This document shows positions 34,609-64,000 of a DNA stretch of 64,000 nt, piece after piece. The notes beneath the pieces are model-generated. The model had not been told where the DNA came from. It saw only the letters and a program-made list of their open reading frames with translations, and did no database searches. Origin of the DNA: Cyanophora paradoxa CCMP329 (lineage: Eukaryota; Plantae; Glaucophyta); the NCBI GenBank assembly GCA_004431415.1, contig QPMI01000059.1, positions 282,819 to 346,818 on the forward strand. The letters are read 5' to 3'. The first letter of the stretch is position 1. Every line of letters starts with the position of its first letter. Made by a program: the position numbers and the translations under genes.

Positions 34609-37600
34609 ATGACAGTGCCCGCGAAGCTCGCCAGGCCCGGCCTCCGCTCGCGTGACGGGGGAACCGCTGTGCCGCTCAAAGCGCTGCTCGTCACTGCCGT
34701 CATCGATGGCTACTGCTGTGAGACAACACGTACGTCCATTTCAAAGATCGCGCTGCAGTCGATTGCGCCGCCGCGCCGCGGCTGACCCTCGGACGCTTGG
34801 ATCGGCAGTTCGCCACATCTTCAAGCACGAGGGCCACTTGCCCGTGGAAGTCGTGTACCGCTTTCAAGTTCCTGAGAACGCTTCCGTGTCGGGCTTCGAG
34901 GCCCGCATCGGCCCCGCGGAGATCACGGGGAGAGTCGGCGATGCGAACCCCGACGCAGCAGCGGCGGCGGCGGCGGCGCACGCGACAGCGGCCGCGATGG
35001 GCGCTCTGGACGGCGACTGCTCCGACGGGTTCCTGACGCTGGACTCGGGGCGCCTGGCCCTCGCGCCGAACGCCGAGGCGATCTTCACCGTCTCCATCGT
35101 CCACGAGCTGCCGCCGGCCGGCGACGGCGCCGCGCGCTTCGCGCTCCCTTCCGCGGCGCTCCTGCCGGACGAGGAGCTCGAGGTGCGCGCCGGCGTGGCG
35201 CCCGCCGCGGCGCGTTCGGAGCCGCCAGGCGCGGCCCGAACTCGATCCGCGCAGGACGCGCCGGTGGACGTGTCCGTCGACCTCTCGTTCGCCGCGCCGC
35301 TGCCGCTCTCCATCGGCGCCGTGCGCTCCCCGACGCACGCCTCCCAGCTCGGTGCGCCGGGGCCGCCCGCCGCCGCCCGCCCGCCCGGTCCGCCGCCTCC
35401 TGACCGCGCGCCGCGCAGCCGTGATCAGAGAGGGCGACATCACGCGCGTCACGATCGGCCCCGTGGTGCGAGCGGGCGGACGCGCCGGTCGCGCGTTGGG
35501 CCGCTGAGGCGGCGCGGGGCGCGGGGGCGGCAGGCGCTGAAGCGCTGCGGGGGGCGCTGGCGGTGGAGGCGCCGATGGACGGCCCGGCGGCGTTCCTCTG
35601 GTCGGACGCGGTGGACGGGAAGGGGCCGGCGGCGCTGGCGCTGAGCGCGGCGCCCTCGTGGCCGGCCATGGACCCCGCCGAGCTCGAGGTCTTCTTCGCC
35701 CTCGACCGCGCCCTCGGCAGGGCCAGGCGCGCCCGCCCGCCCCGCCCGCCCCCACGCCCGCCCGGCCGCAGGCCAGCGCTAGTCGCCGTGGCTCTGACGC
35801 CCCCGTCCCGCAGGCTGGAGCAGGCCAAGAGCGCTGTGCGCACCGCCGTGCGCTCGCTCCCCCACGGCGCCCACTTCGACATCCTCGGTCCGCGTACCCG
35901 TCCAGCTTCTTCCCCCCCCTTCCCCCTCCTCTGAATCGGCCGTAGCCTTCGGGAGCGATGTCGAGCGTCTCTGCGCGGCGGGCAAACCGCAGGCTCTCTC
36001 TGACAAGGCTCTATCCCATGTGCTTTCTTTCTTGAACATCCTTAACACATCTTTCATTGAAACCCTATTACGTCTTCATAGGCCGACAAGTTTCTGGAGC
36101 GCGTGCGCCCGGCGGACTGCCCCGGGGGGGCCGACCTATGGAGGGGTACCGCCGCCGCCCTAGACTGCGCGGGGGCCCCGGGGCGCCCCCGGTACCCCCC
36201 CCCCCCCCCCCCCCCCGCCCCGTTCCTATGAGTTTTCGGCTTAGCAACTTTCGGTCGCAGGCAGCGGCAGGTCATTCTGGTGACGAGCGCCAAGGTGCGA
36301 GTGCGAGCGCCCTCCTCCCTTTCCGCCCCCCTCCTCCGCCCCCCCCTCCCCCTCCCCCCCTCTTCCGCCCCCCTCCCCTCTTCTTCCCCACTCTGACCCG
36401 ACCTGATCCGGCCTTACCGATCCGACTCGATATGATTTGATCTGATTTGATCTGATCTGATCTGATCTGATCTGACCCGACGCGGCCTCAGAACGAGGGC
36501 TCCGAGGAGGTGGTGGCGCTCGTGCAGAGCCGCGCCGAAGAGGTGCCTGGGCTCTCTTTTTTTAATGCATACAGTGTACCCCGGCGGCCTAGACGAAGAC
36601 CAAAGAAACTAAGGCCCAGCTCTCTTGGCCCTCTTTTTTTAGGAGCTTTGAATCACGTGCACATACCTATGAAGCCTAAAATGTTCAGTTTAAGATCTGA
36701 ACCCTCTCTGTTTCATGTAGCAGCCCCTCCGCGCGCCTTCAGACTGCTGACCGCCCCCCCTCTCCCCCCCAGGCGCGGGTCTTCGCCGTTGGGACGTGCG
36801 AGCCGCTCGCGGCGGCCCTCGCCCGCGCCGGCGCCGGCTTCCCCGAGTTCGTACCCGGTCCGCTCCTTCCCCCCCCCCGCTTCTCCCCCCCCCGCCCCCT
36901 CTTCTCAGGCGGCGCGGGGCAGAGGGGGCGCGGCTGGAGGGGCCGGTGCTGCGGCAGCTGCGGCGCTGCGTGGCGCCGGGCCTCGGCCGCCTCGCCGCCG
37001 ACTGGGGCCTCCCCCGCACCCTCCAGGCCCGCCCCCTCACCACGCGTACCCCCCCTCCAAGCTCATCGACTCGCCCCCCCCCCCTTCCCCTTTCCAGGCC
37101 CCGCGGGAGCTGCCGTCGCTCCTGTTCGCCGGCGACCGCCTCACCGCCTACGCCTTCGGTCCCCCGCCGGTCCGCTTCTTCTCTCTTCAGACTTTTAGCT
37201 TATTGAAAAGCTTACTCAGCTTTAGCCTCTTCAAGACCTTAATAATTAGTTTATATACGAAGTTATTTACGAAGATCTAGAGCCTCCGCCCCACCGTCCC
37301 CTCACCGCCTACGCCTTTGGTCCCCCGCCGGTCCGCTTCTTCTCCTTCTTCTTCAAAGCTTTTGCTTGTCAGAAGCTTGTTAGAAGTCTTCCTTCGTCCC
37401 CCTCGAGGCTTAATTCCTCTTCCTTAACATCGTTAACATCCTTAACACATCTTCATTAAACCTTGTAATAATTATGACATCTTGTGATTACTGTTCGAGA
37501 TTTCCTCTCCCTCCCTGGTAGAGCCCGCGCCCCTTCATTCCTCCGCCTGAGCCTTCTTTCTTGTGCGCATGTGCAGGAGGGCGGGCAGGCCCCGGCGCTC

Positions 37601-41289: not shown

Positions 41290-44389
<3,100 letters not shown>

Positions 44390-45507
44390 GCGCGGACCGG
44401 GAAGGGGGTACACCCTCTCGTGGACGGGCCGGGGGTACCGGTTGTCTGGCACGGGGCGTGCACGTGGGCCCTCTGCCGGCCTTCGTCGAGCAACGTCGGC
44501 TTCGCGGAAAAACATTATAATTATCGATCTCTAGAGTCTCGCACTTCAAAACAACCCGTTTCGCATTTATCTAGCTATCTCGATTTCTCTAGCGCTAGCT
44601 ACTTATACAAGTTATCTAAAAAAAGAAGGTCGCGGCTTCACTAAAGAGCCTTGAATTCATATTGTAGATCTACTATATATAGAAGTGTACATGTACTGTA
44701 GAAGTCTTGTTCCTGATTCTCTGAGAGTTTGTGCATATGAACATTTATTTAGCCTGCAGTTGTGGGGCCAGTGGGCCCGTGATTGATTTCTTTATGTATC
44801 CCTGTTTTGTGAGGTAACTGTGCGGTCAGTGGGCCGGTGATTTCTGTTTTGCAAGGTACGGTAGTCGTGCGGCCAGTGTACATGTGCCGATCGCGATGAT
44901 TTCAGTATCGATGTGTATCTTGCAATTGAGCAACGTATACTTACATGTACATGTGGCATGGTTCCTTAATTAAACGCCTGCGAAGAAAGGACCTATCTCC
45001 TGTTTTGCAAGGCCTAGGTAGACGCGTGAGAGATATATCGATTGAAAGACTGCTCGCCGCTAATGAAAGAGTAAAGCTGAAGCCGCAAGATGCTAGCGCT
45101 ATGTTTACCGAAAAACGTTCCGTCAAACGTCAACTAGATCATGATCATGAAATCGAAATACATGCTCTAACGCTTCGGAACAGCATGCACGCGCCGTAAG
45201 GAGCTGTTTCGCATGTCGCAGACGGCCCCGGACGGACCTCGACGGGCCGAAAACGGCGCGACCTTTTGGACATCCCGCTAGTTCGCGAGCTTTAACAATG
45301 GATGGAATTTGAATTTTGAACACGGCCGTGTCACGGCGGCTATCAGCCGGCTGAGTTCGAGTTCGAGCTGGCTAGACCAAATTCTATATCCCCCCAAGCC
45401 ATCTCCCCCCCCTTCCAAGCCACGGCCAGCTGCAGCTAGATTGCGGCCAGCCACGGACTTGCGCGGGAAAAGCAAAAGCGCTTATAGCTTAGCGTTCGGC
45501 GATCGAG

Positions 45508-47264
45508 ATGCCGCTCTCTGTGCTGTCTGCCAAGGTCGGCTCAGCGTTCGGTTCCATTAGAGCGTGGCTGGGCGGCGCCAGCGATGGCAGGCCGCGGCAC
45601 GGCCAGATTGGCGGCAGCACCTGCGGCAGCCAGGACGACCTCGGCGAGGACGTGAATCCAGACGACTTTGGCGACGCAGCTTTGAGCGAGCAAGTCGTTC
45701 AGCCTGCGCATGCAGCGCCAGCTGCGCATGCGACGGCCGCGGTCGCGCTGGCGCCTCCCGCGGCGGAGCCGGCGGGCGGGAGCGACTCCCCACAAGTCTC
45801 GCCAGTACGCTCAGAGCTCGAGCAGAGCCCCGGCAGCGGCTGCTGTGAGACGCCAGGGACGCCTTTGGGGGGGGGTACGCCTGTACAGCCGTGTACGCCG
45901 CCTGTCGCAGCTGCCTCATCAGCGACCCCCGTGTACACGCCTGATCGCCCGCGTCGCAAGCGGGTAGTAGCTGCGCCCTCGCAATCGCAGCCTTCGCATG
46001 ATCAGCCGGCCACGCCTCCACGCACGCAGCCGCCGGCGGCAGCGGCCTCGCCAGCGACCCCCGTGGACATGCCTAAGCGCGTGAGTCGCAAGCGGGCAGC
46101 GGCGGCGACCTCCCAGCCTTCGCCCGCGGCGGCACCGAGCGAGCAATATGAGGATCCCTTCGTTGCCATGGAGCGGTATATGGACGATCCCTCTGTCGCG
46201 CCGTCGCCTGCCAGCTCAGCCGCGAAGAAGCCAGCCCCGAAGAAGCCCGCCACGTCCACCAAGCAGCAGTGCAAGCGGCGCAAGTGCGATGTCGAGATGA
46301 CGGGCGAGGAGGAAGATCGATTCACCCCCTGGGACAAGCCCGGGCGGCACCGCTTTCGCATCGAGGAGGAGGACGCCGCACTCTATCGGAGGCTCACCGG
46401 CTGCAAGCGGGTTTCCGATGCGGTTCGCATGGCGTCCAAGCTCCTTGAAGCGATCGAGTACCTTCAGCAGCGTGTGCGCGCGCCGTTTCACGCCGCCGTG
46501 CGCTTCGCCCGCAGCTTGCCTCGCTGATTCGGGCCGCAGGATGTCCTAGACAAGGGTCTAACTGGCGCGGAGCTCGCCAATCAACTGAAGGCGAAAGTCG
46601 ACGTGTTCCTCCGTGCACCGGCGCAGCGTGAGGAGCTCCAACAGAAGTGCAGCTCCCTGGAGCGGGAGCTCCCTGATCTGCGGTGGGCCAACAGGGAGAA
46701 GCAGCGGCAGATCGCTCAACGGGAGGAGAAGATCGCTCAGCTGGAGAAGGAGATGATGCAGCTCAACGCCAGTCTGGTGAGCCCGCCGGCCGCCGCGCCG
46801 CCCGCCCCGCCGGCGCCCGCAATGCGCTGCTGACGGCGGTCCCTCCGGCGCCCGCAGAGAGCGACTCGGGTCAAAAACCTCGAAGAGGAGTGCGAGGAGC
46901 TGCAGAACCAGAACGCTGCGCTGCAGACGAAGGTGGATGACCTGGAAAACAAGGTCCGCGATTGCCCACACGCGTGCGTGCGCCCGCTGGCGCGTAACGC
47001 GGCGCGGCGCAGGTCTCAAGGATGAAGAGGAATTGGGACTTGGAGTTGGAGCGTGAGGCGAAGGTGTGGCGGAAGGAGGAGCGCATGTACATAAAGGAGG
47101 TGGAGGAGCTGGAGGCCGTTATCGAGTATCTCTACATGAGGGACGTGCTCATGCGGGAACCCCGGGGGCCTAGGGTCGCAGGGTGGGTCGCCGCGGTCCA
47201 GCAGCTACACGCTGCTGTGCCGCCGGAGACGTCGCCTTTCGAGGCGCCCGCCATCGGGCGCTAG
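45508..47264 (+). CDS. Hypothetical protein: disordered S/T-P-rich N-terminal half, basic clusters, C-terminal coiled coil
   Basis: 339-aa first ORF followed by GT-AG-spliced heptad-rich exons (REELQQKCSSLERE..., VKNLEEECEELQNQNAALQTKVDDLENK, MKRNWDLELERE); no family recognised. Confidence 0.55.
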
Positions 47265-47330
47265 CCCCGGCCCGCTCGCTTCGTCCTGCATAGCTAGAGC
47301 TCTCATCGGATGAGAAAAATTTGTGTTCCT

Positions 47331-47586
47331 TGTCGGATGAGAGGATTCCCACCCGGTGCAGCGTCCGTGCGGTCACGCACGGGCTGGGGCTGTAGCTGGG
47401 AGCACAAGTGGTCTATTCACAAGTGTACCCGTCCAGGGATCGCGTACCCCCAAACGGAGTCGCGCCCGGCGCTAAGTCAGAATACAGAGAGTGCTAGAGC
47501 TAGCTGCTCGATAGCACTAGACTAGGGCTAGCGGCTACGCATAGACTGCCGGCTAGCCTAATCCGAGGGAATCGCGGCACGCGACA
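47331..47586 (-). repeat. Putative 3' LTR (~256 bp)
   Basis: Termini form a 5-bp inverted repeat, TGTCG...CGACA; the minus-strand TG lies 1 nt after a polypurine tract; interior is non-coding and less GC-rich. The left boundary cannot be confirmed without the 5' LTR. Confidence 0.6.
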
Positions 47587-47587
47587 A

Positions 47588-47598
47588 CTCCTCACTCT
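47588..47598 (-). promoter_or_regulatory. Polypurine tract (plus-strand primer)
   Basis: Minus strand reads AGAGTGAGGAG-T-TGTCGC, downstream of integrase. Confidence 0.6.
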
Positions 47599-48275
47599 GC
47601 ATACGGTGCGTCCTCGCACCGGACCGCGCCAAGCCGAACGTCGAGTCTGCATGCTCGACGGGGCGTCCACCCCACCGCCGGGGTGTGCACCAACCACGGC
47701 AGCGACAGGGCGGCGGCGAGTGAACTCCTCTCGAAGTAGAATGTCCGTCGTCAGCAACCAGATATGCCAGGTAGCATAGCTCGCGACCGAAATAGGAGCC
47801 GATACCAGCATAGTGCATGTACCTAGGCAACCCCAGGCCAAGCTCGAAAGATGGAAAAGCATAGAACTCGAAACCCCCAAAAGCTGGCCCAAACTCGCTC
47901 CAACGGCGAGAGCCGAAGGAGAGTGGCACGGATGGGAAGTTTCACCGCCTCGGGAAGAAACCAGCGAGGAGGTATCCGGGCCGCCCATCAGGCCCAACGA
48001 AAGGATAGGGCACGACTGAGTGCACCCCCAGCCAGCAACCTCGAGCCCCTCACGGACCCGCAGGCACCCGGGAGGCCTACACCCAGCCACTCTCCACGAG
48101 CGACGGGCCCAGATCCCAGAAAATGGAACGAAAGGCCCAGATGGCGCCCCGTGATTGGCCACCAGCCAACCCACGTCCCACCTCGGAAGCCAGGGCTGAG
48201 GCAAAGCGGGCAAAGAAATCTGCCCCACGGCGCAAGCACAGCGATCGCAAAGGGAACAGCAATGGGACGAGCTTC

Positions 48276-49935
48276 TCACAGGTCGTCGACCAAAATCGCG
48301 TCATCCATCTCAACCTCGTCGCCCTCGGCAGCCCGCTCGGGCCCTCGGCGTCGACGTCAGGGGCGAGAGGTGGATTTTGTTCTTGAGCGGGCGAGTCCGC
48401 GAGTGCGGGGTCGATCGCCGGCTCGTCGGCGTTCACAGCAGTCTTCCGAGGCCGACCAACGCGGGGACGGGCTTGAGACTCGGAGAGACGCGTGCGGAAC
48501 GGAAGCATGCAGTCGATGTGGGCAACAGTCTCACGCAGAGGACGGGTACGGGCATCGTCCTTGGCGGAGTAGGGCTTAGCCGACCCCTTGACCGTGTAGG
48601 TGTAACCGCCAGGGTTAACACCAGTCACAGTGTAGGGCCCGACCCACGAATTGTACAGCCCTTTGTTGTGTTCGCCCATCCAGCACAATACCTTGTCGCC
48701 AACCTCAAAGCGGCGACGATGAGGCGGGTTGCCGGTGCGAGCAACCATGCGGTTCCGATAGAACCGACGGTACTCGCGCGAGGCAGCGTCGGCGCTCGCG
48801 GCAGCTCGCGTCATCGCGAGAAGGTAATCAGCCGGGTGCGTGTGGTCGGGGTTCACGAAGCGGACGCCGGCTCCGAAGCGCACTTCGCAGGGCAGGTGCA
48901 CTTCAGAACCGCGGTGCAAGACCATCGGGGAGAACCCGGTGGCGGAGTGCACGGTGGTCCGCAACGCGAGAACGATATCGGCGTTGTAAAGAGGCCAGTC
49001 AGAGAGCGGCCGCTTGTGCTCACGGCACATGGCGTAAGCGAGAGTCTTGTAGACTCCGCCCAGGCGCTCGGCGCCGCCGTTCGAGGCGTGGTGGTAGGCG
49101 GCCGCGTGCACGAACCGGGTACCCTTCTCCTTGAAGAACGCGTTCCACGCGCCCCAACGAGTTGGGACCCGCGGTCCGTCAGGATGCGCGCGGGCACGCC
49201 CTCGTGCGTATAGAAGTCGATCGCGGTGGCGAGCAAGGCCTCGCCGGAGATACGGGAGAGCGGGTAGATATAGCAGAACTTGGTGTATGCGTCGACGTAC
49301 GCGATGATGTATCGCGAACCGTCTTCGTGCATATCCAAGTGGAAGATATCCACCTGCCACAGGTCTCCCTTGCCCGAAGGCTGTATCACCTGAATGGCGG
49401 TACGGCGGGGCTTCGCGGCCTTCGCGAACTGACAGTGCGGGCACGACCGCACAAAGCGAGCGATGGAGGCGTACATGCCAGGCCACCAGAACCGCAGGGC
49501 GATCCGACGGGCTATCACGGGCGCGCCTCGATGGGCCCAGCCCTCGTGATAGGCGTAGAGCACCCTGTCGATCCAAGCGTCCGGCAAGACGGGTAGGAAC
49601 CGGCCGGCAGGGACCAAGGGGTTGCGCTCGATGACGCCGTCGTCGGCCAGGCTGAACTCGCCGGCCAGGCGTGCAAAGCGCTCCTTGGCCCGCAGGCAGT
49701 GAGCGCAGCTGGGCGAGCAGGGATCTGCGTCGCGCCTCGAGCCGCGGGTACAGACAGTTGGATTCTCGCCCTCTGCGTGGAAGGCGAGAAGCTTCTTGCA
49801 GAAGGAATCCTCCTTCTGAGCGGCGAGCAGACGCTTGCGCTTCTCGGGCGGGAACATACGGCGCAGCGCGTCGGGGAGCGCCCCATCGACGGCTGGCGAG
49901 GGTCCGCAGGCCCACGCGTCGAGGACGGTATCCAC
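48276..49935 (-). pseudogene. Retrotransposon integrase (frameshifted near 49150)
   Basis: HHCC: YHEGWAHRG...FWWPGM...CPHC. DDE: WQVDIFH, VDAYTK, ILTDRGSQ, SNGGAER. Also TTVHSATGFSP, FEVGDKVL, WVGPYTV (GPY/F motif) and C-terminal RVGRPRK. Confidence 0.93.
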
Positions 49936-51269
49936 GAAGACCGGCTTGCACGGCGGGCGAACGTCCCGGCCTCTAGGGTCGAGTTCTACCCACCGCTGCG
50001 GGCAGCGGCCTCGGCGGCGACCGTCTCAGGCTCGAGCGGGGCGGCGTCGTCGGAAGCCTGCCCGCGGGCAGAGGGGCGACCTCGAGCCCGCGGCGCTGGC
50101 TTGGGGTCCGGGGGACCGGCCGAACGCGGATCTGGTGGCGAGCAGTCTCCGGGGAGAGCGAGCGTCGGCGCGGAGGCCCGGGAGGCGGCTCGCCCTCAGG
50201 GTCCTCCGGCTCCCACTCAATATGAATCGGCACCGGCCGATCCGAGGGGTCGACCGGGGAGCGCCAGTGGCGCGTGTTGTACTCATCTCGAGGCTGCCGC
50301 CTCAAGGCGGGCCGCGAGGGAAGAGCGCGTCGGGATGCAGGGGCCGCGGCTCGGCAAATCCCTTGGCGCCCCACCGACGGGGCCCGGTTTCCGAGCGCTT
50401 CGGGACTCGCTCCGCAAGAGCGAGGGGGAAGCCGTCAGCGTCGCAGGCGTCGGAGGGGACAGGCCCTTCCGGCAGCGACTCGTCATCGATCTCGCCCGAG
50501 GCCTCGGCCTCTGCGTGAGCGTCCTCTAGCAGCGCGGCCGGGGCGCCCAGGTCGCCCTCAGGGGCGTCGGGCATCTCCGCGTCCGAGGGAGCCTCGCGCT
50601 CCTCGACAGCGGGCGCCGGGCCCGGCTCTCGTCGTTTCGGGGGCGGCGAGACCGACTCTGGCGCGGGAGGCGCGAAGCGCTCTGGGGCGGCCCGCGCTCG
50701 CTTGCGCGTGGCGGCGTCAGTAGCCGAGGCGGAGGCCTTGGCCTCAGCGAACCCAGCCGACGCAGCAAGCTTGGCGAGCTCGCGGGGCAGGCGTCGCGGC
50801 GCGCGCTCTGGCGGCGGGGGCTCGGCGTCGGAATCGGTTTCCGCAGCACCGCCAGCCTCACCCTCAGGCTCGGGCGCGGGCGCTTCAGGGGCGCCGGCGT
50901 CGGGCTCGGCCTCAGGAGCACTGGCTGGCACAGGGGGCCGCGACTCCTCCTCTGCATAAGAGGAGCGGCCCGGCGGGGAAGAGGGGGCGCTCGCAGGCGC
51001 CGCCCGGGCGCTCGGCGTCTAGCGGCTCGGCCACCCTCGGCTGGGGCTTCCGCGCGGAAGCCGGCGGAGTTGGCGAGCTGGCGCAGGGCCCGCTCGGTCG
51101 GGCCCAGCTGCATCCTAAAGATGCCCAGCGGGACGTCGGGATCCTCAGGCTCAGCCCCTACAGCATGTTGCGGGATGCCGAAGCCTTCGGCGCCCTTGTA
51201 GGCCGCGGGCTTGGACGAGGAACCGTCTGCACCGCCTGGCTGCCAGACGGGGTGGTCCTTAGGGAGACG

Positions 51270-51723
51270 CGAGCACGCGTCGGGACCCCGTTCTGCTTGC
51301 CAGGGCGGTAGACGATCTCAAAGTCGTAGGCCTGCAAGAGCAGGGACCAGCGACCGAGGCGGCCCGTCGTCGGGTCCAGCGTCTTCAGCCACTGGAGGGC
51401 GTGGTGGTCGGTCCGCACCAGGAACTGGGGGCCGCCAGCAGATAGTGGCGCCAATACTTAATGGCCCAGACTACTGCGAGGCACTCCAGCTCCGTAGCGG
51501 AGTAGTTCATCTCGGCCGGCAGCAGCGTGCGGCTGATGAACGCGAGCGGCCGCTCGACGCCTTTGTCGTCGGCCTGGCTCAGAATTGCGCCGATAGCGTA
51601 GGTGCTGGCGTCCGTCTGGAGAATGAAGGGCTTCGAGAAGTCCGGGAACCGCAATATAATATCGCGGCCCAGGAGTTCTTTCAGCTCCTTAAAGGCGCGG
51701 TCGGCGGGCCGTCCTCTGGCCAA
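51270..51723 (-). pseudogene. Ty3/gypsy RNase H (frameshifted)
   Basis: FPDFSKPFILQTDASTYAIGAILSQ, AFISRTLLPAEMNYSATELECLAVVWAI, VRTDHHALQWL, RLGRWSLLLQAYDFEIVYRPGKQN. Confidence 0.93.
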
Positions 51724-52620
51724 CTCCAGACGGCGTCCTTCAATAGAAGGCGCTGCATGGCGTGCACCACTTTGGAGAAGTTCTCGACAAAGCGGCGGTA
51801 GTAGCCGGCGAGGCCGAGGAACGAGCGGAGCTCGTCCGCGTTCTTCGGCGTCTGCCAGTCCGTGATCACCTTGGTCTTCGCAGGGTCCTGGCGGATCCCT
51901 TCGGCGGAGATGCGGTGGCCGAGAAGGTCGATTTCAGGCACGCAGAAGCGGCACTTCGACGGCTTCAGGCGCAGGTTCGCCTTAGAGATCGTCTCGAAGA
52001 GCGCCTTCAAGTCTAGAAGGTGCTGATCGATGGACGGTGAGAAGACCGTGATATCGTCGATGTACGCGACGACGCAGGTGGTCAGCAAGGGGCCCAGGAT
52101 CGCAGTGATCGCGCGGGAGAATGCCGCGGGCCCGTTCGTGACCCCAAACGGCGTAACCTTCCACTGAAAGTGACCCCAGGGGACCACAAATGCAGTGTAG
52201 GCTCGGGAGCCGGGGTGCAGAGGCAGCTGCCAGAAGCCGGCAGTCGCGTCAGCAGTCGAGAAGACCATCGAGCCGCGGAGGCGCTCGAGCTGGTCGTCTA
52301 TGCGGGGTAGGGGAAACACGTCCCGCTCGGTGATCTGATTCAGCCTCGATAGTCGACACAGAAACGCCAAGTGCCGTCCTTTTTGGGGGCCAGCACTACC
52401 GGCGAGCCATATGCCGCTTGGGAGGGCTCGATCAGCCCAAGCTCAAGGAGTTTCTGAATTTCCTTGCGGGCGTGTTCCTCGGCGTGCGGGTTCATACGCC
52501 GCGGAGGCGTGAACACCGGAAGGCGAGTCGTGAGTTTGATCACGTGCTCGTAATAGAGCAGGTTGCTGGTGCCCTCTTTGGCCTCGACCTTGTCTGCGAA
52601 GACATCCTTGTAGCGCCGCA
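51724..52620 (-). pseudogene. Ty3/gypsy reverse transcriptase (frameshifted near 52345)
   Basis: SPVVLAPKKDGTWRFCVDYR, FPLPRIDD, DATAGFWQ, TPFGVTNGPAAF, YIDD at 52053-52064, KCRF, LLGH, LRSFLGLAGYYRRFV. Confidence 0.95.
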
Positions 52621-53774
52621 GGAGCGCGTGAAGTTCGGCTTTCTGCGCCGTCGTGATTGACGGGTGAGAGCCGAGCTCAGGAATCTTCTTCAGCAGCTCT
52701 TGCCACTCCTCCTCTGCATTAGGCACCGGCCGCGGTGCCTCAGCGGGCTTCGCGTCGGGTGCTGCAGTCGTAGGGGTGGGGCATCGGGCCGGGCCGAAAG
52801 CGAGGCTGTGACCACACTCTGGGGTGGGCCTCGGCGTCGGCGACCGGTGCGGCCTTGCGGACCGTAACGTCGCCGCGCATGGCGCGGACTGCATCGAGCA
52901 AGTCGCGCTCCGCTTTTTCGGAGAGACCGGGGAAGGTCGAGCGCAGGGTGGCGTCTCTGGGGACGGACACTGCCTCGACTGCGGCGACGAACTCGTCGAC
53001 CGAGGGCCTGTGATCGGGGCCGGCGTTGGGGACGCGCTTCGTGACGACGTGCTCATAGCATCGTCGTCGAGGCTAATGATGCTCATAGCATCAAGGTCCT
53101 GCAACGGCCGGTCGGCTGTGTCGAAGGGCAGCTCGCCAAACGTGACGACTATATCGTCGACGTCGTAGGGCGGTGCGCGGGGTGGGTCGGCGGGCTCAGC
53201 AGGCGCTGCGCTAGACAGAGCGCGCTGCTTTTCCGCCTCATCTACGACAGAACGTAGGGTGGAGATTATTTTCTCAACGTCTTTGGCGGGCTCATATGCC
53301 GCGCCAAGCATGCGTGCTTTTCTATTAAAGTGGCGGAGTCCAGTGCGGCGTTTGGCAGGCACGATTCGCAGCCGGCGAATCAAGAGGTCTGTCAATGCAC
53401 TCGCACTACAAGGCATTTGCTCAGGTTCGTACTCAAAATCACCAGGCGGTAGGCGACCGCCGAAGCGACCGCTACTACCGATCCTAGCGGCAGGGTTACC
53501 GGCTGCCGGCCAGGATTGCACAACCGCACGTGAAACATTTTGTCTCCCGGGTGATTATGCAGCTGGTAAGGGCAGAGTACGCCCAAGGCTTGCGGGGACT
53601 CCGGCGACGGCTCGACGTAGAGGTGCGGCAACTCACGCGTTGCCGGGCCCTGCCCATTGAGCGTGCATGGGACGAGGCCTCTCCGACGGGGAGCTTTACT
53701 GGTCCCAGGACTCGGACCAGGATCCCAAGCTGGTCCGGAGCCGAAAAGGGACGACGACTTCGCGGTGCAGGTGG

Positions 53775-54170
53775 TCACGGGCCGGAGGCACACCCGGACA
53801 GCGTCGTGTCGATCTGGTCGTGGACGGCCTGGATCGCGTCCAGGCCGAGCAGAATGTCCGGCTCAACGCCCATGGCGCCGCGCGGGACGACGAAGACGCG
53901 GCGGCAGAAGCGGAGCGAGCCCAGAACGAAGACTACGTCGGCGCGGCGACAACGAATTTTGTCCCGGTCCATGAAACCGCGGACTATCGTGTGGCCTCGA
54001 CGTAATTGACTTCGTCGGGCGGCAGGCGGTCGAGGACTTCCTGGGAACTACAGTTCCCTGGGCGCCCGTGTCGACAACAATGCGAGCGGGCCGTTCAGCG
54101 CCGGAGCGGCCGTTCGGCAGGCGCATAGCAATGCTGCCGTGAATGTGCAGTGTCTTTGGCCGGAAGAATT
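53775..54170 (-). pseudogene. Retrotransposon aspartic protease (frameshifted)
   Basis: IVVDTGAQGTVV (DTG at 54064-54072) and downstream DILLGLD motif. Confidence 0.85.
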
Positions 54171-57100
54171 CCAGGCCCGGTCGCGCGGAAGCTAGGTCGG
54201 GCGCGGCGGACGTGGAATTCTGTTCCGGCGGCGCGGTGGACCCGACAGGTCCGTTGCGCTTGCGGTTGGGGATGGGGGCCGGGACTGGCGAGCCGCGGCT
54301 CGCTCGGCGACTCGGCGCTGCTCTGCCTGGTCGGCCAACGGCGAGGCTTGGTCCGCTTGCGCGGCCCGGGCCGTGGCGGTTGGCGTAGAGCAACTCGTCG
54401 CTGGGCGGGTCATAGCCGGCGCGCGTTCCCAGCGGCGTCTCCTCTGCCGGGCGGGGCACGGCGAGGGACGGGCGGTTTTTGGAGCCCAGGGCGTGGCCCG
54501 CGGGCATGAGAGCTTCCTCGTCGGAGGTCAGGCCTCGGGGTAAATGATCGCGGCGGCCTCGAGCGCGTTCTGCGGGGCGAACGCCGCTGTCGGCGCTGAA
54601 CCGAGAACCACGCGCGAGTCGGCCGTGGCGGGGCCTTGTAGCCCGTTTTGCGCATCGAGATGCCGTAGCGGTCCATGATCGCCTGATGCACCGCGCGTAA
54701 GGCGGCTCCAGGGTCTTTGGATCGACCTGCAGCATTTGCGCGGGTTCGACAGCCAGTGAAGACCAGCACGGTCGAGCGCGGCCCGAGCTTGTGCAGCAGG
54801 CGGCGGGCCCAGGCCGGCGCAGGCTCGCGGCTCTTTGGTGGGCGGGGCGGGCGGCGCGGCTGGCGCCGGCGGCGCGACTGTTTGAGCGGGCGGCTCGTGG
54901 ACGACCGTCTGGACGCGGCGGATCGAGATGTACTTCTCGTCCGCCGGCACCGGCACAGCGGCCCGGACCGACGCCGGCGTATGCAAGTGGGCGGGAAGGT
55001 CACAGGGCGCGCGGGCCTCGTGCCCGCGGGGTGACGACGCTTCTGCGACGGTGTATACCGCGAAGAAGGGCTTTGGGTTGGCTTTTGCCGCGGCCTGCAT
55101 TGCCACGCGAGCCTCGTGCTGGCGCTCGCGCTCAAGCAAGGCTCGCCAGTCTTTGGTGCGATCGAGCGTGGCCGCAGAGCCTCGAGATCGGCACGGGGCC
55201 CGTCTGGGAGGAGCGAGATCATCATGCCCGTCTCCCCAGCGGAGAGGCTGATCTGCATATCGATGCCGGCCCGGAGGCGCGGCAGACGTCTTCCAGGCCG
55301 CCGAGCGGCCTGCTTTGCCTGGCGAAGGCTTCGTCTGAGACTTCTGAGCGCCGCCGGCTTGGCGCGCGTCTCGGCGTGGCTAGCGGCGGTGCGGATCTGG
55401 CGCTCGACTGTTTGAAGCCAAAGCCCCAATTCCGTGACCCTTGGCCCCGGATCTTCACGTCGCGGCAGCTCGAGCACTCGCGCACAAACTGCAGGAGGCC
55501 CCCTGCTGGGACGTCAGCCTGGGGGTTGAAAGTCGTGGCGGCGGAGGCGCGCGGCGCGGCACTGAGGCGCGCGGCTGCTCCGGCGTCGACTGTCTGCGCG
55601 CGGCGGCTCGGCCTGGCTCGCACGCGATGACCGCTCCTGGCCTGAGAGATGGAGGCGCGACCCTCCGCAGGCTTGGACGGCGCCGCCGACTGCGGACGGC
55701 CTCGCTCTGCCCCTCAGGCCCTCTAGAAAGGGCTGCTGGCGCTCGTTGCGTCCGCCCGTCGGCGGCTGCCCACCCGATGGTGGCGCGGCGGCGCGGGCGA
55801 GGACGACGCGGACTGAGCGTCCATCTGGTTCTGGAGCTTGATCAGGACCAGCGCGGTGGCCTGCTCAGCTCGCGCGGACGCCGAGAGCGAGTCTGGCATC
55901 TCAGCGTACTGCGCCTTCCAGACCATGTCGAAGAGCTCGCGCAATGTGGGCGGGCAGCCTCGCAGGCGGCGTCGTTCTCGTGCCGCTGTACGCAGCGTCT
56001 ACGGCGCAGCGCGGCGGGTCCGGCGGGCGGCGAGAGGATGGCTGCTGCGAGGGCTGCGGCGGTCTCGCGGCGAGGCGCGGTCGCGCGAGCCCTTCTTCGA
56101 GCTTTTGCGCCGCTTATCGTCATGGCGGGGCTCCGCTCGGGCTCCGATCGCGCGAGCGCGAGCGGGAGCTAGAGCGGGACGGTGTTCGCTCCGGCGGCGT
56201 TCCCGCGAGCCTCGGCGAGGCTCCGCCTGTCGCGAGTGTCGCGACGTGGACCGTCGGCTCGGCGGGCTGCGGTCGCGGCGCGGCGGCGAGCGATCACGGC
56301 GGTCCGGGAGCGGGGCGGAGGCTCGCGGTCCCGGCGTCCGGCGAAGGGCGTCGGGAGCCCTCGCGATCGCGGCGTTCCAACGAACGGCGGGACGGCGCGG
56401 CGCCCGGGATTGCCGGTGGGGCTCCGGGGAGCGCTCGCGGCGCGTGGAGGGGCCCCGCGTCTCGCGCCTGTCTGGGTGCGAGAAGCGGCGACTGGACGGG
56501 GCTCGGCGCGGCTCGGGTGTGCGCGAGCGGCGCTGAGACGAGCCCGCTCAGGGTCCGGCGGGCCTGCGACGCGCGACTGGCCGTGTGTCCCTGCGGCTCG
56601 AGCTTGCCTCGGCCTGGCGGTCGAGCTGGGCGCGGCATCAAGGTCCGGGAGGGAGTCTCAGCCGGCGGGGCTTGTCTGGCGGAGCGCTCTCGGCGATCCG
56701 CTCGACTTCACTTCCCGTCCGAGACGGTTACGCGCATGTCTTGGGGTCATACCCCTGCTGCCGCGCGAGGAACGCATCAGCCCGAACGGGTCGTTCGGGT
56801 CGACAGCGGGTTGTGCGGGTTGCGCCTGGCCACCGCCGCGGTCGCCGCCACGGTCACGGTGGCCTCGGCCGTCGCGACCGCGGTGCCGGCCGCCCGCTGG
56901 TGACCCTGCCCGCGGCCGCCTCGGCCAACGGCCTGGCCCGCGTTGCGCCGGGGCGCGCCTGCTGCGGCGCCGTCGGCGGCGGCGGTCTGCGCAGCGGCCT
57001 GCGCCGGCGCGGGCGCCGACGGGGGTGGCGGATGGCGCGCCTCGGCGGGGTCGTCGCGAGCCGCCGACGATGGTTGAGGGCGGCTGGAACCGCACGCCGC

Positions 57101-60100
57101 CCACGTCGCGCGGACCGCTCCTTCGTAGATCGGCTGGTACGGCGTGCGAACCAGAAGGCTTTCGGCCTCCTTATCGACAGCCGCCGTCGCAGTCAGGCTG
57201 CGCCGGCCGAGGGCGCGGCGCCCTTGTTCTGGACCGCGTCCCACATCAGCGCCGGGCGCAGAGCCTCAACGTCCCAGTCGGGGAGCACGGGGTCGTCCGT
57301 CTCCAGTCGATCGGGCGCGCGAGGCGGATCGCGACATTCAGATCGGCGTAGAGCGAACGGAGCATCGTCTCGAACTGACGCCGCAGGGGTATAGCCTCAT
57401 CGGTAAAGATGAGCCCCAGCGGGAAGTTCCCGGGACAGTTCTCCAGCTCCTCGGCGGCGCGGGCGGCCTCAAGGTGGCGCTGTATCCCACTCTTGCCCCG
57501 GCGCCAAGGTCATCGCCGGCGGGCCACGCGTCCTCGGCGCCGGCCATCGGGGGCGAGCCGAGCTCAAGACGCTGGTACCCGAGACCGTGCGGCATGTTTG
57601 TGAGGTACGCGCGGATGCCGTCCGCCAGCGCGCGGGCATCCGAGTCGGCGCACTCATCCTCGTCATAGTGCGCAAGAGGGCCCTGAAGACCTCGGCCACG
57701 TTCTGGGCATGGCGGCGTTCAGGGCGCACAGTTGTCCACCCGCTGCGCGAGCAGCGGGATGCGGGGATACTGGAAGCCCTGCAGCATCGCGAGCAGGATC
57801 CGCCACAGATTACGCCGCACGACCCTCGTGGTCCGGCACGACCGCATTGTTCGGGCCAAACTTCCACGCAAGCGTGGGATGACCGTCCGGGTACGTCGGC
57901 CTCGCGTCCGCGTCGAAGACCTTCTTGCCTGAGGCAAGACGTCGGACCGCGGTCCGGCTTGGCGTCGCTTAGTCAGAAGGCCTCGTGAATGAACACCATC
58001 AGACCGTCCGGCACCACGCAGCGGAACGAGTTCAACACCTTGTTGAAGTATCCATGTGATCGGCGACCGCCCGAGCGATCTCGGGGACGTAGTCAGCCGG
58101 GCGTTCCGACTCGACGTCCATGGCCGCAGCCGACAGAAAGTCATCAGCCAGTGCTGGCTGCGGAGGTGCTGCCGGCGCGTGACGCTGAAGAAGCGCGCGT
58201 GCCAGCCAGCGTAAAACGATGGCCGTCGCGAGGATTTCTCTTCCGCCGGGATCGGCGCCCAAGGCACGTCCCGGAGGTGAGTTCGGGAAAGGCGGCAGCT
58301 CGTAACCGACGCGGTGACGAGCCGCGGGTTCGCGTGGCTCTTCTTGGGCTGGCTCGCAAGCTGGGCGACCGTCACTGCGAGCCACAGCTTCTTGTTCTCG
58401 CGCTGGTGCGGCGCGCCCCCTGCGACGTCCTTGTCGCAGCAGCGTTCGGCGCGGGCGTGCCGTGCCTGCCACGAGGCGGGCGCGTAGATGCGCCGCGTCT
58501 GCAGGCGACCTCAACGTTCTCGACGCGCTTGTCGGCGACGGCGCAGCAGGGCCAGCACGGCGACGTCGCGCGCGAAGCGGGTCGCGAACGGCGTCCTGGC
58601 GTCCTCCTCGTTCGGTGTCGGCGATGTTACCGCCAAGACTGAGGTGTGCAGGGTGGGGCGCTCGGGGTGCGGCATGTACGGCGGCGGGGCGTTCGCGCGC
58701 CGCCGCCTTCGTGGAAGAAGGCGGTATACAGCACCCGCGAGACCTGGCCCAGGGTCGAACACACGGGTGCGTGGGCTGTGCCCTCGTGCGTGAGATCCAG
58801 GCCCGTGTACGTCGGGACGGCAGACTGTCGGTACGGGTCCGACCGGAGGTACTGCACGATATCCAAGCTACGCCGCAGGCGGCGTGCGGGAATGCAAGCC
58901 CCTGCAGGTCGAAGAGCTCCGGATCCTCGCGAACGGCCGCTGAGGCGGGCCTACGAGCGAGAACCAGTTCACTATGCCGCGCGCGGCGGGGCGACGCGCT
59001 TGAGCATAGTTGAGCACAGCTCGCCCATGTGCTGGTCCTGCAGCGTGAGCACGTCGACGTTGTACTCGTCAACGTCGCCGGCGTGCTGCCAGCGCAAGGG
59101 TAGCTGATCGCGGCAGCGTTGCCCATTCAGTGAACCCTGGCTCATAGCATTCCAGGGCCGGAAAAACGCGTGTTTCCGGTCCATGTACTCGCGCAAGAGC
59201 TTGTGATCGTTGGCGTACGTCGGGTCCGCCAACGAGACAGCGCCGCGGCTGCCAGTCTTGTGCGGCTCGAACGGCCTGTGCGCCGCCGCAGGGATGGCAG
59301 CCGGCGCCTCTTCCTTCTCGCCCTCTTCCTCTTCGCTCTCGACATGGTCAATGTCGAGCGGCTCGAGGCGGGGCTCAGCTCATCGGCGATGTAGGTGCCC
59401 ACAAGCGCATCGTCGAACGTGAACGACTGCCGTGCAGCGTGACGCTCGAGGCATGCAAGACCTTCTCCTGGAAGGCCGCGCGCTGGGCGTCAGGGCCAAG
59501 CCCTGTGCGGGTCGCTCTCGCGGCTTCCTCCTGCGCGCGCGTCCCTAGCTGCAGGTGGCGGCGCAGCCAGCGAACCCGTACGGAACTCCAGGCCGGCGCG
59601 TTCCGCGGAGGGGAACGGTGGTCCCAACCGCCTCGCGCGGAACATGGTGTGAGCACGCAAGAGGTACTGGGCCCACTGCGGCGGATGACGGCCGCGCTCG
59701 GGTTGAAGCGGCCCCGTGCGTCCACCGCGGCAGGCGCGTGGCAGGGATCGTCCAACGCAGAGTCAGGAAGTGTCCAACTGCTGCTCCGTCCACCATGCAG
59801 GTGGAACGGGAGATCGTGGAGTGGGCGTGACGGGGCCACGGGCCCAGCGCGATCATGAAGAGCTCGAACGCGGCCGCGTTGAGCGCGCGAGGCGAACGGT
59901 GCGATCGGCTCTGAGCGCGACGCGCCTCCGGCGGCTCCTCGTGCGGCACGGGCGGCCCATCCAGGCGGTTCTGGATTGGCGTGCTCCTCTCGCTGGCGAG
60001 AACGCCTTGAGGTGCGGACCCGCAGGTCCTCGAACGTGCCCTTCAGTGCGTCGAAGGGATGCTCCAGCGGTGGCGAGATCAGACGGGCCGTCATGGGCCA

Positions 60101-62689
60101 CTCGGTGATCTGTTTCCCTCACAGAGCCGAGGCGGGCACCCCGGCACTGCGAGGACGCCGCTCATCACGCCCATAGCCTCGTACAGGGCCGCTGGCTCAG
60201 GTTCTCATCGATAGCCGACGGCGGCGGCGGCGGCGGCGCTTCCTCGGGCGCCTCATCGCCGTCGCCCCGCTCGCCCATCTCGGCGTCTTCCCCTCAGCCT
60301 GCCCACGGCGGGCGCTGCGGGTTCGTGGCCCTGCGAGCCGCGCCCACGGGTGCTGACGCGCCGACCCCGTCCCCGCGGCCACGCTCGCCGCGACGGGCGG
60401 CCTGCCGGGGAGCCGCGCGGTCGCTGCGCGCAGACGTCGAGTAGCGGCTCGCTCAGGCGAGGCTCGACAGGCGCGGCTCAGTGGCGGGCGGCGTCGGAGC
60501 GGCGGTGGCCGCGGCGCCATCGGGCTCGCAAGCGGCGGCCATGTTGCCGCGGCGTGCAAGGTCACGAGCTTCGCCGTCGTGCAGGCGGCGGGACAGGAAC
60601 GGCGCCGCCGCGCCGGCGCTGGCGGGTCCCTCGGCGAGAGCCTTCACAGGCGGGCGCGGCGGCAGGCAGGCCTTAGCCTCCTTGATCGTCGCGCTGACGG
60701 CCTTCGCCGTGTAGGCGCCCGTCGTGTCCGACGCCGGCTCGGCGTGGTGGGCAGGTCGTGAGAGGAGTGGGGGTGCGGCTGCCGCATCCGTGCGCCACTT
60801 CTCACGAGCGCGATCATGTCCTTGACAGCCTCGTCATTGAAACCGGCCCGCTTCTTCAGCAGCCTACGGAATAGAATGACGAGGTGGGCCCGGTCGCCCG
60901 CCTTGGCCCCCTCGATGTACGGAGCAGCTCCGCGGCCCCGGCGGATCCGGAACCGTGCGGCCCAGGCTGCATCGCACAGGGCGGTGAGCGGCGGGCGCGG
61001 CCGAGCTGGCTCAGCACGTAGAGCTCCTCAGCGACGATCTGGCAGCTGCCCGCCTCGCGTCGTGCCGTGCAGGGGGCAACTGCGTGGTGCGCGTGATCGG
61101 GCGCACGCGGCGACCCTCCACGTGCCAGGCTCTGCCCCGTGCAGGCGCGGCCAGTGCAGCCAGGTGTCGCACAAGTGCAGGTCTCGGAGGTGCAGAACGC
61201 GGCGGCGGCGACGCGGGCTCCACCGGAACGCGTTCAACCGTGCGGGACTCGCCCTCGCTCACGACCGGGAAGGCGGGGCACGGCCGTGCGGTACGCAGTC
61301 AGACGCTCCGCGAGCGCTGCCCGCAGCCAGTCCCTCGGCGTCCCGATCCGAGCGGAGACGTGCCCGCCCCGGGATCGGAACCTCAACGGAGGCAGCCAGG
61401 ACGGCAAGCGAGTGAACGGCTTCCGTGAACTCCGAGTCCGAGGGGACAAGAGGGTTCCCGTGCCCGGGCAAACGGCGCTCTTGTGGGCGTCGTGGGGACC
61501 GGCGCGGCCGCCGATGCAAGCCACGGTCTTCCACTGGATCGCGTGCTCGAGGGCCAGCAGGGCGAAGCCATAGCGTCGACCCGCGCGTCCACCATGAGCG
61601 GCTCGGCGAACTTAAAGAAGCGGCCGAGGATCTCTCGACGGCGCCGGCGGTGCCCGGGGCACCGTAGTCGACGCGGTGCAGGAAATAGCCCGCAACAGTC
61701 GGGCGCACGCAGGCGGAGGCGGTCCTGTGCCGGCAACAGCTCGCTCAGCTCGATTAGCTGCGGCGGCCCGACACGTCATCTCGTGCGGCTCGAGAGAGGC
61801 CGCCACGGGCGAGTGTGGCCAATGCTCCAGTGGCGGCGGTATGGCTCAGCCACGCCGGTAGCGACGCACTCGTCCCCAAGCTTCGTAAGCTTGTGGGCGT
61901 CGGGCTCGACTGCGGGGCGACCCTCGGGCGTGAGGCCCTCGGCGTGCGGCCACGCGTGGCCCCGGCCCACTTCGCGGCGACGCGAGAGGCCTGGTGCGTG
62001 AGGCTCATGATTTCATAATAGTGCGTCGGCCAGGCGTGAGCCAGCGTGTCCTGGGACAGCGGGTCATGCCCCAGCATCTGCAGGAACGCAGTGGGGAGGG
62101 TCCGCGAGCCGAGGTACGTGCTCTCGGTGGCGAGCGGCTGAGAGAACGCCGCAAGCAAGAAGGAGAGCGTCTGGCGGGTGCGGGCCGGGCAGCGGAACGC
62201 AGTGGCATACCACTGCTCGTCCCGGACCTCGATCAGCCCCTCGCTCACAGTGCAGCCGCAGTGAGTCTCGCACGGCGCTGGGTACAGGAACGCCGCGCGG
62301 TCGAGCGGGACCGACGCGGCGCCCTTCAGCTTGTGCGCGTCCACGTTCCAGAGAGGAACGGGCCCCAGCTCGTGCTCGCGGCCCTTCACCGGCTCTAACT
62401 CAACGGCTCCGAAGTGAGTGAGGTCTAGGCCGGGGCTAGCGCTGAGGAGGCGAGCGCGGTTGAGGCGCAGGGTCTCCTTAGACGCTACGGTCGCGTCCTC
62501 GTCGGCGAGGGAGGCGCCGTCGTCGTCACCTCGAGGCTCGCTACCGTCTCGGCCCCCGAGGAGTACCCCAGGCAGCAGCCCACGCCGGCGGCGGGGTCCG
62601 CCGGAGCCTCGGCGGCGGCGGTCTCGGGACCGACTTGGTGGGAGCGAGCTCCGTCGCGGGCTCGGGACCCTTCGCTTCTGCGTCACGCC

Positions 62690-62900
62690 GCCTCGACCTC
62701 CGTTGGGTCCGGGGCGGCCGCCAAGAGGAGTGCGACCTCCTCAAGGGCGGCGTCCACGATGCCGGCGGCGAGCTCGGCGGGGAAAGAAGTCGGCACGGGC
62801 GTCGGCGCGGACCTTCGCTGCTGCGTCAGCGCCCTCGACCTCCGTTGGGTCCGGGGCGGCCGCCAAGAGGAGTGCGATTTCCTCGAGGGCGGCGTCCACT
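62690..62900. repeat. Internal ~70-bp direct repeat encoding VDAALEE(I/V)ALLLAAAPDPTEVE twice
   Basis: cctcgacctccgttgggtccggggcggccgccaagaggagtgcga...agggcggcgtccac at ~62691-62758 and ~62833-62899. Confidence 0.85.
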
Positions 62901-63472
62901 GCGTCGAACGCGACCTTCTTCTCCCCCTCGTCCAGGCCCGACTCCGGGCGGGTCGGCAACAGGTCCTGCGCCTCGCAGGGGCCGGCCTCTCGGCTCCCGT
63001 GGGGCACAGGTCTGGGCGGCTTTCCCCGGACAGCTGCACTACTGCGATCGCGAAAGCGGTGGCGGCTGCGGCGACCGCGTTGAGAGCGGGGCCGTCCCGG
63101 GGGTCCTGCAGCGCGGCGGCGTGCGCCGCGGCCGCTGCGGTGAAGGCTCGGAAGGTATCGTCGACCAACGCCTCGTCGCTGCGCACGATGCGCACACGGT
63201 ACACGTGCTTTTCCTTGCAAGCTCGGCGGGCGCCGGGGCCGCCGTGGGCCCCGACCCGTGGCCGCCGGTCGGCGCGGGAAGCAGTGCAGTCGCGGACGGG
63301 CGGCGGCGCCGCTTCGGGCAGCCTGCTCGAGCATGGCGCGCGCGATCGTGAAGGCGTTGGGGTCAGCCCAGGGCGCCGGCGTCGCGGGCGGCACGGGCGG
63401 GGCTGCAGCGGCGGCGGCGTGTTCTGCAAGCGCGCGGCGGACCGCGGCCTCGAGCGTCTGCGCCTGGGCCGG

Positions 63473-63514
63473 GCAGGACGCGGCCAGGTGGCCGGTTTTG
63501 CCGCAGTTGTAGCA
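63473..63514 (-). other. Gag-type CCHC zinc knuckle
   Basis: CYNCGKTGHLAASC = C-x2-C-x4-H-x4-C. Confidence 0.85.
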
Positions 63515-64000
63515 CGCCCGGGCCCTGCAGCTTGCTGGGGCGGGGGGCTCGAGCGGCCGTTCCCACCCTGCGGCGGGGGTAGAACCGGCGCTTCGGGTCA
63601 CGGTGCCTGCGCCCGTTGGCCCGCGGCGCTTGGCCGGGTTGATTGCCGACCACTCGGGCAGAGGCCGGGTTGGTCCGGCATCAAACGAGTAGTGCGACTC
63701 GCCGCAGTGGCACGCCGGGGCTTCTCGGGAGACCCCGGCCTTCAGGAAGTCTTTGATCTTCTGCTGATAGACCGGGTCGTCAAGGCGGGCGGCGGTGCGG
63801 ACGCCGACGGGTAGAGCGCGCGGACTACGACGAGGGGCTCGTCCCGAGCAATGAGCTGCAGGAACGAGATGACCTCGGCGTTCTGATCCTCGGCGTCGTC
63901 CGCGTCCCACCCGTACGCGTTTGCCTCAAGCTCTGCGATCTCGGCTTCCGACACCGTCGTCGCGAGCATGATGCGCGTGCCCGCGCCGGCGCCCGCGTCG

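Follow-up and report, generated by a model that had tools for sequence, protein, structure and literature searches.

A Ty3/gypsy retrotransposon of Cyanophora paradoxa with some 3,150 residues of unrecognised sequence separating nucleocapsid from protease

Architecture of the element

The window analysed here, a stretch of 64,000 nucleotides from Cyanophora paradoxa CCMP329 (contig QPMI01000059.1, positions 282,819 to 346,818 of the forward strand), ends in a minus-strand region (47331-64000) that is one Ty3/gypsy element, a young, multi-copy retrotransposon. Unless stated otherwise, the element features given below lie on the minus strand. The element terminates in a 256-bp 3′ long terminal repeat (LTR; 47331-47586) with TG...CA ends, 5-bp inverted repeats (TGTCG/CGACA) and a read depth above that of the internal region, adjoined by a polypurine tract (PPT; 47587-47598); both stand where an earlier reading of the same stretch, the original prediction, had placed them. 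A predicted target-site duplication, TTCCT (47326-47330, plus strand), is seen on one side only, its counterpart lying beyond the window, and contigs from all four short-read runs diverge from the window at 47331, revealing an empty site. As predicted, self-BLAST returned no further LTR copy within the 64-kb window.

A 3′ non-coding region of ~680 nt (47599-48275) separates the PPT from pol, its limit being given by the pol models of other copies, which terminate at ...ILVDDL*. Pol itself comprises, from its 3′ end, an integrase (48276-50025; Pfam H2C2 at 49417-49584 and core at 49153-49371), a long Pro/Ala/acidic linker (50026-51283), reverse transcriptase (RT) plus RNase H (RH; 51284-52765, Pfam) and, at the start of the frame, a dUTPase-like stretch with a linker (52766-53743), the former judged by eye and lacking a Pfam match. 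Within the window the Pfam families follow the order RVT_1, RT_RNaseH(_2), Integrase_H2C2 and rve, as expected for Ty3/gypsy. Ahead of pol lies an aspartic protease (53751-54150) with its D-T-G at 54072, which profiles match only below the cut-off (Asp_protease_2, E 4e-4, in a model of another copy). The complete protease-RT-RH-integrase set of the original prediction thus stands by Pfam for the last three members and by its motif for the protease. In a PDB search with the pol of a sister copy (P0027), Ty3 RT was the best match (E 6e-81; next 2e-46; murine leukaemia virus-type 1e-27), which puts the RT nearer to Ty3 than to retroviral RTs; the order protease, RT, RH, integrase and the TG...CA-ended 3′ LTR beside a PPT likewise mark the element as Ty3/gypsy. 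Pfam gave no match to a second RNase H domain, nor to a chromodomain, the mark of chromoviruses, at the integrase C-terminal tail in the window frame or in P0023.

At its opposite end the element enters the window with a part of Gag, a putative capsid bearing a major homology region (MHR)-like motif (63713-64000), followed by an atypical Cys/His motif, C-H-C-x3-H-x4-C (63678-63712), that is kept in both subfamilies described below, and by a CCHC zinc knuckle exactly where it had been predicted (63473-63514; Pfam zf-CCHC at 63470-63520, E 2e-6). No capsid domain was matched by Pfam in the Gag models, and the best alignment of the capsid region with nine Gag references, on the MHR-like motif, is not significant (E 0.1). 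Because Gag starts about 347 codons past the window edge in models of other copies (P0004, P0012, P0021), the element is, on these models, at least ~18 kb long, in line with the single element of more than 16.6 kb originally proposed; one short-read contig (X2 record 22) extends ~1.1 kb beyond the edge at 64000. The segment between knuckle and protease, hereafter the cargo, amounts to ~3,150 amino acids (aa) with no known-protein match, which bears out the ~3,000 extra unrecognised residues of the original prediction. Short-read depth across 54-64 kb is flat at 17.1 (X18) and 17.2 (X2) times that of the unique flank; as a rough estimate of copy number, this corresponds to about 17 near-identical copies in the genome.

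One element with one long first frame

The region had been described as uninterrupted, intronless coding sequence. Tracts of the host intron type (poly-C/CCCCG) number 53 in 1-45190 and none in 47331-64000, and this part of the description holds; the coding path given by a codon model, however, runs from 64000 to 48200, pol included, in ~62 frame segments, with one real break after the protease. The frameshifts in the window are very likely assembly errors, because short-read contigs carry the missing bases: a single 6,157-bp contig covers 55102-61125 with 151 gaps and only 5 substitutions relative to the window. The bases are supplied at full depth by contigs of three DNA-like short-read runs (12 of the 224 indel rows examined).

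Between 63996 and the stop of the first open reading frame (ORF1) lie 10,298 nt, of which 10,103 are covered in register by sixteen gene models from other copies. This tiling omits P0010, a non-independent model repeating the frames of the window itself, as well as two short ones, P0007 and P0015. It follows one frame through ORF1, with a stop before pol. Four gaps (26-108 nt, 195 nt in total) are bridged by no model and count against continuity; each is open in at least one window frame. The cargo models lie on 14 named contigs, that of P0010 again not being independent, and the close protein matches with a source shown are all EukProt models, those looked up being labelled Cyanophora paradoxa. 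ORF1 is a Gag-cargo-protease frame of ~3,850 aa ending at 53698.

That 55-64 kb belongs to a different element, nested in or adjacent to the one carrying pol, is barely credible and already largely refuted. Depth over pol does exceed depth over the cargo (X1, ~102-106 versus 57), but sister subfamilies, with an ORF1 too divergent for mapping, are expected to produce such a surplus. P0027 (tig00020943) fuses a sister-type Gag N-terminus straight to RT; it tells against a single long unit, and short forms may exist, although this model may instead be an internally deleted copy or a gene-model artefact. Other models run through the cargo into protease and pol: P0018 reads from cargo to protease, P0025 from cargo through protease to integrase, and three consecutive genes on tig00021572 encode Gag-cargo (P0021, 3,082 aa), cargo-protease (P0019) and pol (P0024). 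The gene order of the window is found on tig00021572, tig00000246, tig00000658 and tig00020849, and window self-BLAST found no internal element termini. With flat depth and the same gene order, neither a 5′ LTR near the protease nor a 55-64 kb region recurring with another pol or its own termini, the two observations that would have refuted the original prediction, was encountered.

Stop after the protease and predicted −1 frameshift

The single in-frame gag-pol polyprotein of the original prediction does not hold, since the first frame closes behind the protease, with pol in the −1 frame. The ORF1 stop, TAA (53696-53698), coincides with the ends of P0018 and P0019 and is free of indels and substitutions in all four short-read runs, none of which carries an indel at 53676-53778; stop and frame change are a real break, present in every contig examined. 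Pol opens in the −1 frame relative to the protease frame (read with N at read-supported breaks) and overlaps ORF1 by 76 nt. Among variant contigs, 17 of the 21 substitutions listed for 53470-53596 fall on third positions of the pol frame (p 1e-5; 22 further table rows lie outside this count).

The overlap contains a slippery heptamer, C_CCU_UUU (53744-53750), in register with the protease frame (Val-Pro-Phe codons); the 16.5 kb hold five in-register heptamers, and the chance of one falling in the 76-nt overlap is ~0.007. Six nucleotides further on is an 8-bp hairpin (53713-53737; z −2.3 for 36 nt), whose 5′ arm, GGACCAG, recurs immediately before the stop, so that an alternative hairpin is possible. 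An H-type pseudoknot was rejected, as its connecting loop would be 1 nt. Main and variant contigs have in common a core of 153 nt without a listed substitution (53606-53758, no strand assigned), represented by a single contig with a depth near the summed depth of the adjoining variants, which differ beside it at 24 of 174 and 27 of 218 nt (12-14%); the probability of such a core by chance is ~1e-6, computed over those 93 nt that contig overlap does not force. Two distant families (P0047/P0048 and P0051; RT identity 55-60%) likewise have Val-Pro-Phe behind the protease, and several pol models of distant members start after the protease, as expected for a clade-wide break. Y_CCU_UUU with an adjoining structure has been proposed as a −1 frameshift signal in flaviviruses (the part of PMC2657137 available to us), and the available part of PMC5009743 makes general statements only on retrotransposon frameshifting.

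We consider it highly probable, from these sequence features, that pol is reached by −1 ribosomal frameshifting after the protease; the predicted fusion product has ~5,660 aa. Two points weigh against this. The hairpin is modest, its z-score being −2.3 at 36 nt, −0.5 at 44 nt and −0.4 at 83 nt, with equally good folding in 42 of 1,367 element windows; the invariant core could reflect gene conversion or a packaging signal instead. Splicing of the Ogre type, or separate initiation, is an unlikely route to pol. Ogre's GAG-PROT is split from its RT-RH-INT by an intron that undergoes splicing in some transcripts (PMC6317226, in the part available), and models of several copies splice over the junction here (P0025, P0029, P0030, P0036); their splice junctions, however, differ between copies, the two frames overlap, codon-position bias is seen in the DNA directly after the stop, the overlap contains a canonical heptamer, and the element has no intron tract of the host type.

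Composition of the cargo

The cargo consists of three large blocks of globular composition (B, C1 and C2), helical regions D/E, Pro/Ala and acidic linkers, and RGG and Arg/Ser/Asp tracts. Downstream of the knuckle, an 89-bp internal duplication found by self-BLAST (62669-62899) encodes an acidic helix twice; then come region B (60750-62540, ~580 aa), the Trp-rich region C1 (59400-60200, ~270 aa) and region C2 (57050-59260, ~740 aa, no match). Low-complexity tracts of RNA-binding type follow (56041-56950, as read in model P0021), namely an Arg/Ser/Asp repeat (63% R+S over 100 aa) and an RGG-rich stretch, and regions D/E, helical blocks with Pro/Ala linkers, close the cargo (54151-56040, no match). 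The RGG/RS part is skipped by model P0018, and a contig joint at single-copy depth (56274-57018) likewise omits it; the tract may vary among copies, or joint and skip may be a low-complexity artefact.

Profile searches of 49 window frames plus models recognised no Pfam family in the cargo (sub-threshold zf_VAL1_N and DUF6300 only), PHROGs and NCBIfam gave no match, PDB returned only knuckles and noise, and the ESM Atlas had no usable match for either of two regions. When a 188-aa piece of region B was run with phmmer against 1.84 billion representatives, six of the seven matches were Cyanophora models, and the seventh, P0016, was dismissed as a repetitive protein; word-indexed searches with the cargo returned only EukProt tig-named models, and none of 185 and none of 600 candidate stretches in metagenome and viral contigs proved to be relatives. 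Such blank searches do not prove that relatives are absent. AlphaFold2 failed on cargo regions with five-row alignments (mean pLDDT 29.6 and 31.2), and Foldseek on these low-confidence models was uninformative (TM-scores to query ≤0.12, including one phage match at E 3e-4). A second Gag in region D, plausible by eye, was not supported by comparison with Gag references. The cargo regions showed no homology to one another or to the sequence preceding the protease in P0048/P0051, and we found no Pfam match to an Env-like region between Gag and Pol and no ubiquitin-tail LRGG-type site in models of the main subfamily; a sister linker holds two loose L-x-G-G matches. Only one marginal Ala-rich hydrophobic segment is common to both subfamilies, without a clear transmembrane anchor. 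As no cleavage site, fold or homologue of the cargo was found, which weighs against the interpretation below, its function is something that we infer.

Subfamilies, selection and RT lineage

The same layout recurs in a sister subfamily, represented by P0014 and P0022 and, next to them, the pol models P0028 and P0026. Identity between the two is 97% in RT-RH, 93% in integrase and 91% in protease (using P0030, placed in the sister subfamily by its pol sequence), falling to 58-66% in the pol linkers and, lower still, to 46-54% in the cargo (46% in C1, 54% in B, and 51% over 464 columns in C2) and 43% in the Gag N-terminus. Of 28 tryptophan positions in the cargo, 22 are retained, compared with 42% in a neutral simulation set to equal identity (p 9e-5; with 51% as the reference, p 0.003). 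Other measures weigh the opposite way: conservative substitutions make up 21-27% against 21% under neutrality, identical residues are not significantly clustered, and for F/Y retention p is 0.10 with the 51% reference. The cargo is thus, by its retained tryptophans, under purifying selection, though weak by the other measures, and diverges fast. Either it is selected yet fast-changing, or Gag-cargo has been exchanged onto a near-identical pol. It is very improbable that the cargo is captured passenger DNA, required only to stay open and without a function of its own. Its identity between subfamilies is lower than that of the pol linkers and its share of conservative substitutions is near neutral, as a passenger's would be; the retained tryptophans nevertheless argue otherwise, the putative capsid region has diverged equally (43%), and long forms dominate depth despite the cost of translating ~9.5 kb at the level of Gag.

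In a midpoint-rooted FastTree phylogeny of RT-RH (95 proteins aligned over at least 380 residues, references unlabelled), all 27 Cyanophora sequences included, out of 34 listed, form one clade with support 1.0. In the distant Cyanophora gypsy families (P0048, P0047, P0051) the protease is preceded by at least 580-900 unrecognised residues, which are 35% identical between P0048 and P0051 and unrelated to the cargo. In L001 (126-6209 and 5768-11494), a distant metagenomic gypsy element whose pol is 37% identical, ORF1 is 2,027 aa long, includes a protease-like motif and overlaps a pol in the −1 frame; the overlap holds CCCTTTT, not in canonical register. This pol has a PHD finger behind its integrase and, ahead of RT, a weak C5 DNA methylase-like domain (E 3e-4).

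Genomic surroundings

The insertion site of the element is itself a multi-copy unit (45195-47330, ~16-26 times flank depth) with a Pro/Ala-rich part and a coiled-coil part and no real Pfam family. A contig of the run guessed to be RNA (X21, 1,866 nt, depth 125) matches 45456-46473, 46540-46775 and 47011-47331 and then continues past the empty site; on this three-piece match, the insertion disrupts a spliced, multi-copy gene-like repeat. The same run hardly covers the element, and we did not take this as evidence for or against expression. Further away, 1-45190 holds host genes carrying poly-C and CCCCG intron tracts; by eye, host ORFs include TPR/MYND-like (33014-33787), VIT-like (34613-35644) and glutamate dehydrogenase-like (near 42466-43395) ones. 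AT-richer degenerate tandem repeats of the CTTCTTAAG type stand amid the GC-rich background at 21901-22336, and microsatellite-like GATCT arrays at 36419-36496 and 43630-43849.

Comparison with known elements

The original prediction spoke of an undescribed giant lineage and a new system. The Cyanophora-only RT clade speaks for a lineage of its own, but the claim was overstated, as the planarian giant gypsy-like element Burro/GYPSM1 already places thousands of residues in this position (PMC6431247). Burro likewise has a CCHC Gag, thousands of in-frame residues before the protease and a dUTPase-like stretch between protease and RT (PMC6431247). Its cargo, however, is recognisable, with MATH, BIR, ankyrin, BCL2, SUMO-like and Env domains (PMC6431247), whereas the models examined here (P0003, P0004, P0018, P0021, P0022) had no Pfam match to MATH, BIR, ankyrin, BCL2 or SUMO-like domains at E up to 1. 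The Burro ORF1 of 4,873-5,140 aa is described as one polyprotein (PMC6431247); that of Cyanophora stops after the protease, with a predicted frameshift fusion of ~5,660 aa and an LTR of 256 bp. The Cyanophora element is apparently an independent variant of the Burro-type layout with unrecognised cargo.

Ogre of plants is also large and has GAG-PROT in one ORF and RT-RH-INT in a second, and is distinguished by an intron of ~274 bp separating the two, an additional RNase H, LTRs of 1.9-6.5 kb and separate extra ORFs (PMC6317226 and PMC6431247, as far as their available parts go). In the Cyanophora element, by contrast, the ORFs overlap in the −1 frame, the DNA downstream is codon-constrained, a second RNase H was not matched, the LTR is short (256 bp) and the cargo lies inside ORF1. 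Alpharetroviruses such as Rous sarcoma virus carry the protease within Gag, 1:1 with capsid, and obtain RT-integrase by a −1 frameshift after it; they differ in having Env, a small Gag and a distant RT, and the likeness is in expression strategy only. Yeast Ty3 has the order protease-RT-RH-integrase and is the best solved-structure match for RT-RH (PDB 7q5b/4ol8), but measures 5.2 kb, shifts frame by +1 where Gag ends and has its protease in Pol (available parts of PMC6525542 and PMC5911963). A gag/pro/pol layout for Skipper was looked for in the available part of PMC5911963 and not found. Literature searches aimed at the element or its layout found no description; Repbase, subscription journals and the supplements of PMC6704402 may hold one.

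Proposed expression and the particle question

In the model that we favour, the LTR would drive one ~18-kb RNA, from which most ribosomes would make Gag-cargo-protease and stop, and a minority would slip back one base at 53750 and add RT-RH-integrase. If ORF1 is translated whole, cargo and protease would be made 1:1 with capsid. We calculate that 540 cargo copies would need ~2.3e5 nm3, compared with a Ty3 capsid interior of ~5e4 nm3 (PMC6525542, in the part available), so that cargo at this ratio would overfill a Ty3-sized shell ~4.5-fold. Because it would not fit, most of the cargo is probably freed before or during assembly: the abundant protease would release most of it as accessory proteins acting outside the shell. 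As judged from composition and evolutionary rate, it is conceivable, if doubtful, that the RS/RGG tracts help to bind and compact the ~18-kb RNA and that the fast-evolving globular blocks counter host defence. Taken together, a single element with a Gag-cargo-protease ORF1, a −1 slip to pol and protease-released accessory cargo is the best explanation overall, and one that we hold to be somewhat on the probable side.

Its main rival, which strikes us as rather unlikely, is a structural cargo: retained in the particle, it would form a shell of much greater size, or of several layers, around the ~18-kb genome. Synthesis 1:1 with capsid, should ORF1 be translated whole, would suit such a role, as would the load of two 18-kb RNAs, ~3.5 times that of Ty3 (2 × 5.2 kb; PMC6525542, available part), and blocks that are large and, in low-confidence models, predicted to be helical. 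The cargo is, however, C-terminal to the knuckle and would face inward, where it needs ~4.5 times the Ty3 interior; it shows no similarity to Gag references, and with a single marginal shared hydrophobic segment no Env-like membrane protein is evident.

Beyond the favoured model, we put forward only tentatively, as one joint claim, that the element represents a glaucophyte-specific giant Ty3/gypsy clade with an exchangeable nucleocapsid-protease cassette, in which a conserved −1 frameshift would yield kilo-residue cargo of new folds at capsid level, different families would load unrelated cargo, and the cargo would either arm the element against host defence or build a particle much larger than any described.

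Implications

According to the available part of the C. paradoxa genome paper, the genome has little or no repeat expansion, LTRs account for 1.77%, and 'gypsy' is absent from the main text (PMC6704402); in the C. paradoxa protein set, pieces of these elements carry annotations as host genes. The ~50% divergence of Gag and cargo beside 97% identical RT is a signature of conflict or module swapping. With planarian Burro, there are now two apparently independent cases of LTR retrotransposons with thousands of residues between nucleocapsid and protease, the present one in a unicellular alga and with cargo that has no recognisable domain. The position of the frameshift predicts ~350 kDa of cargo per capsid subunit, too much for a Ty3-sized shell, and the limit on the size of retroelement genomes and particles would thus become directly testable in a culturable organism with ~17 near-identical copies.

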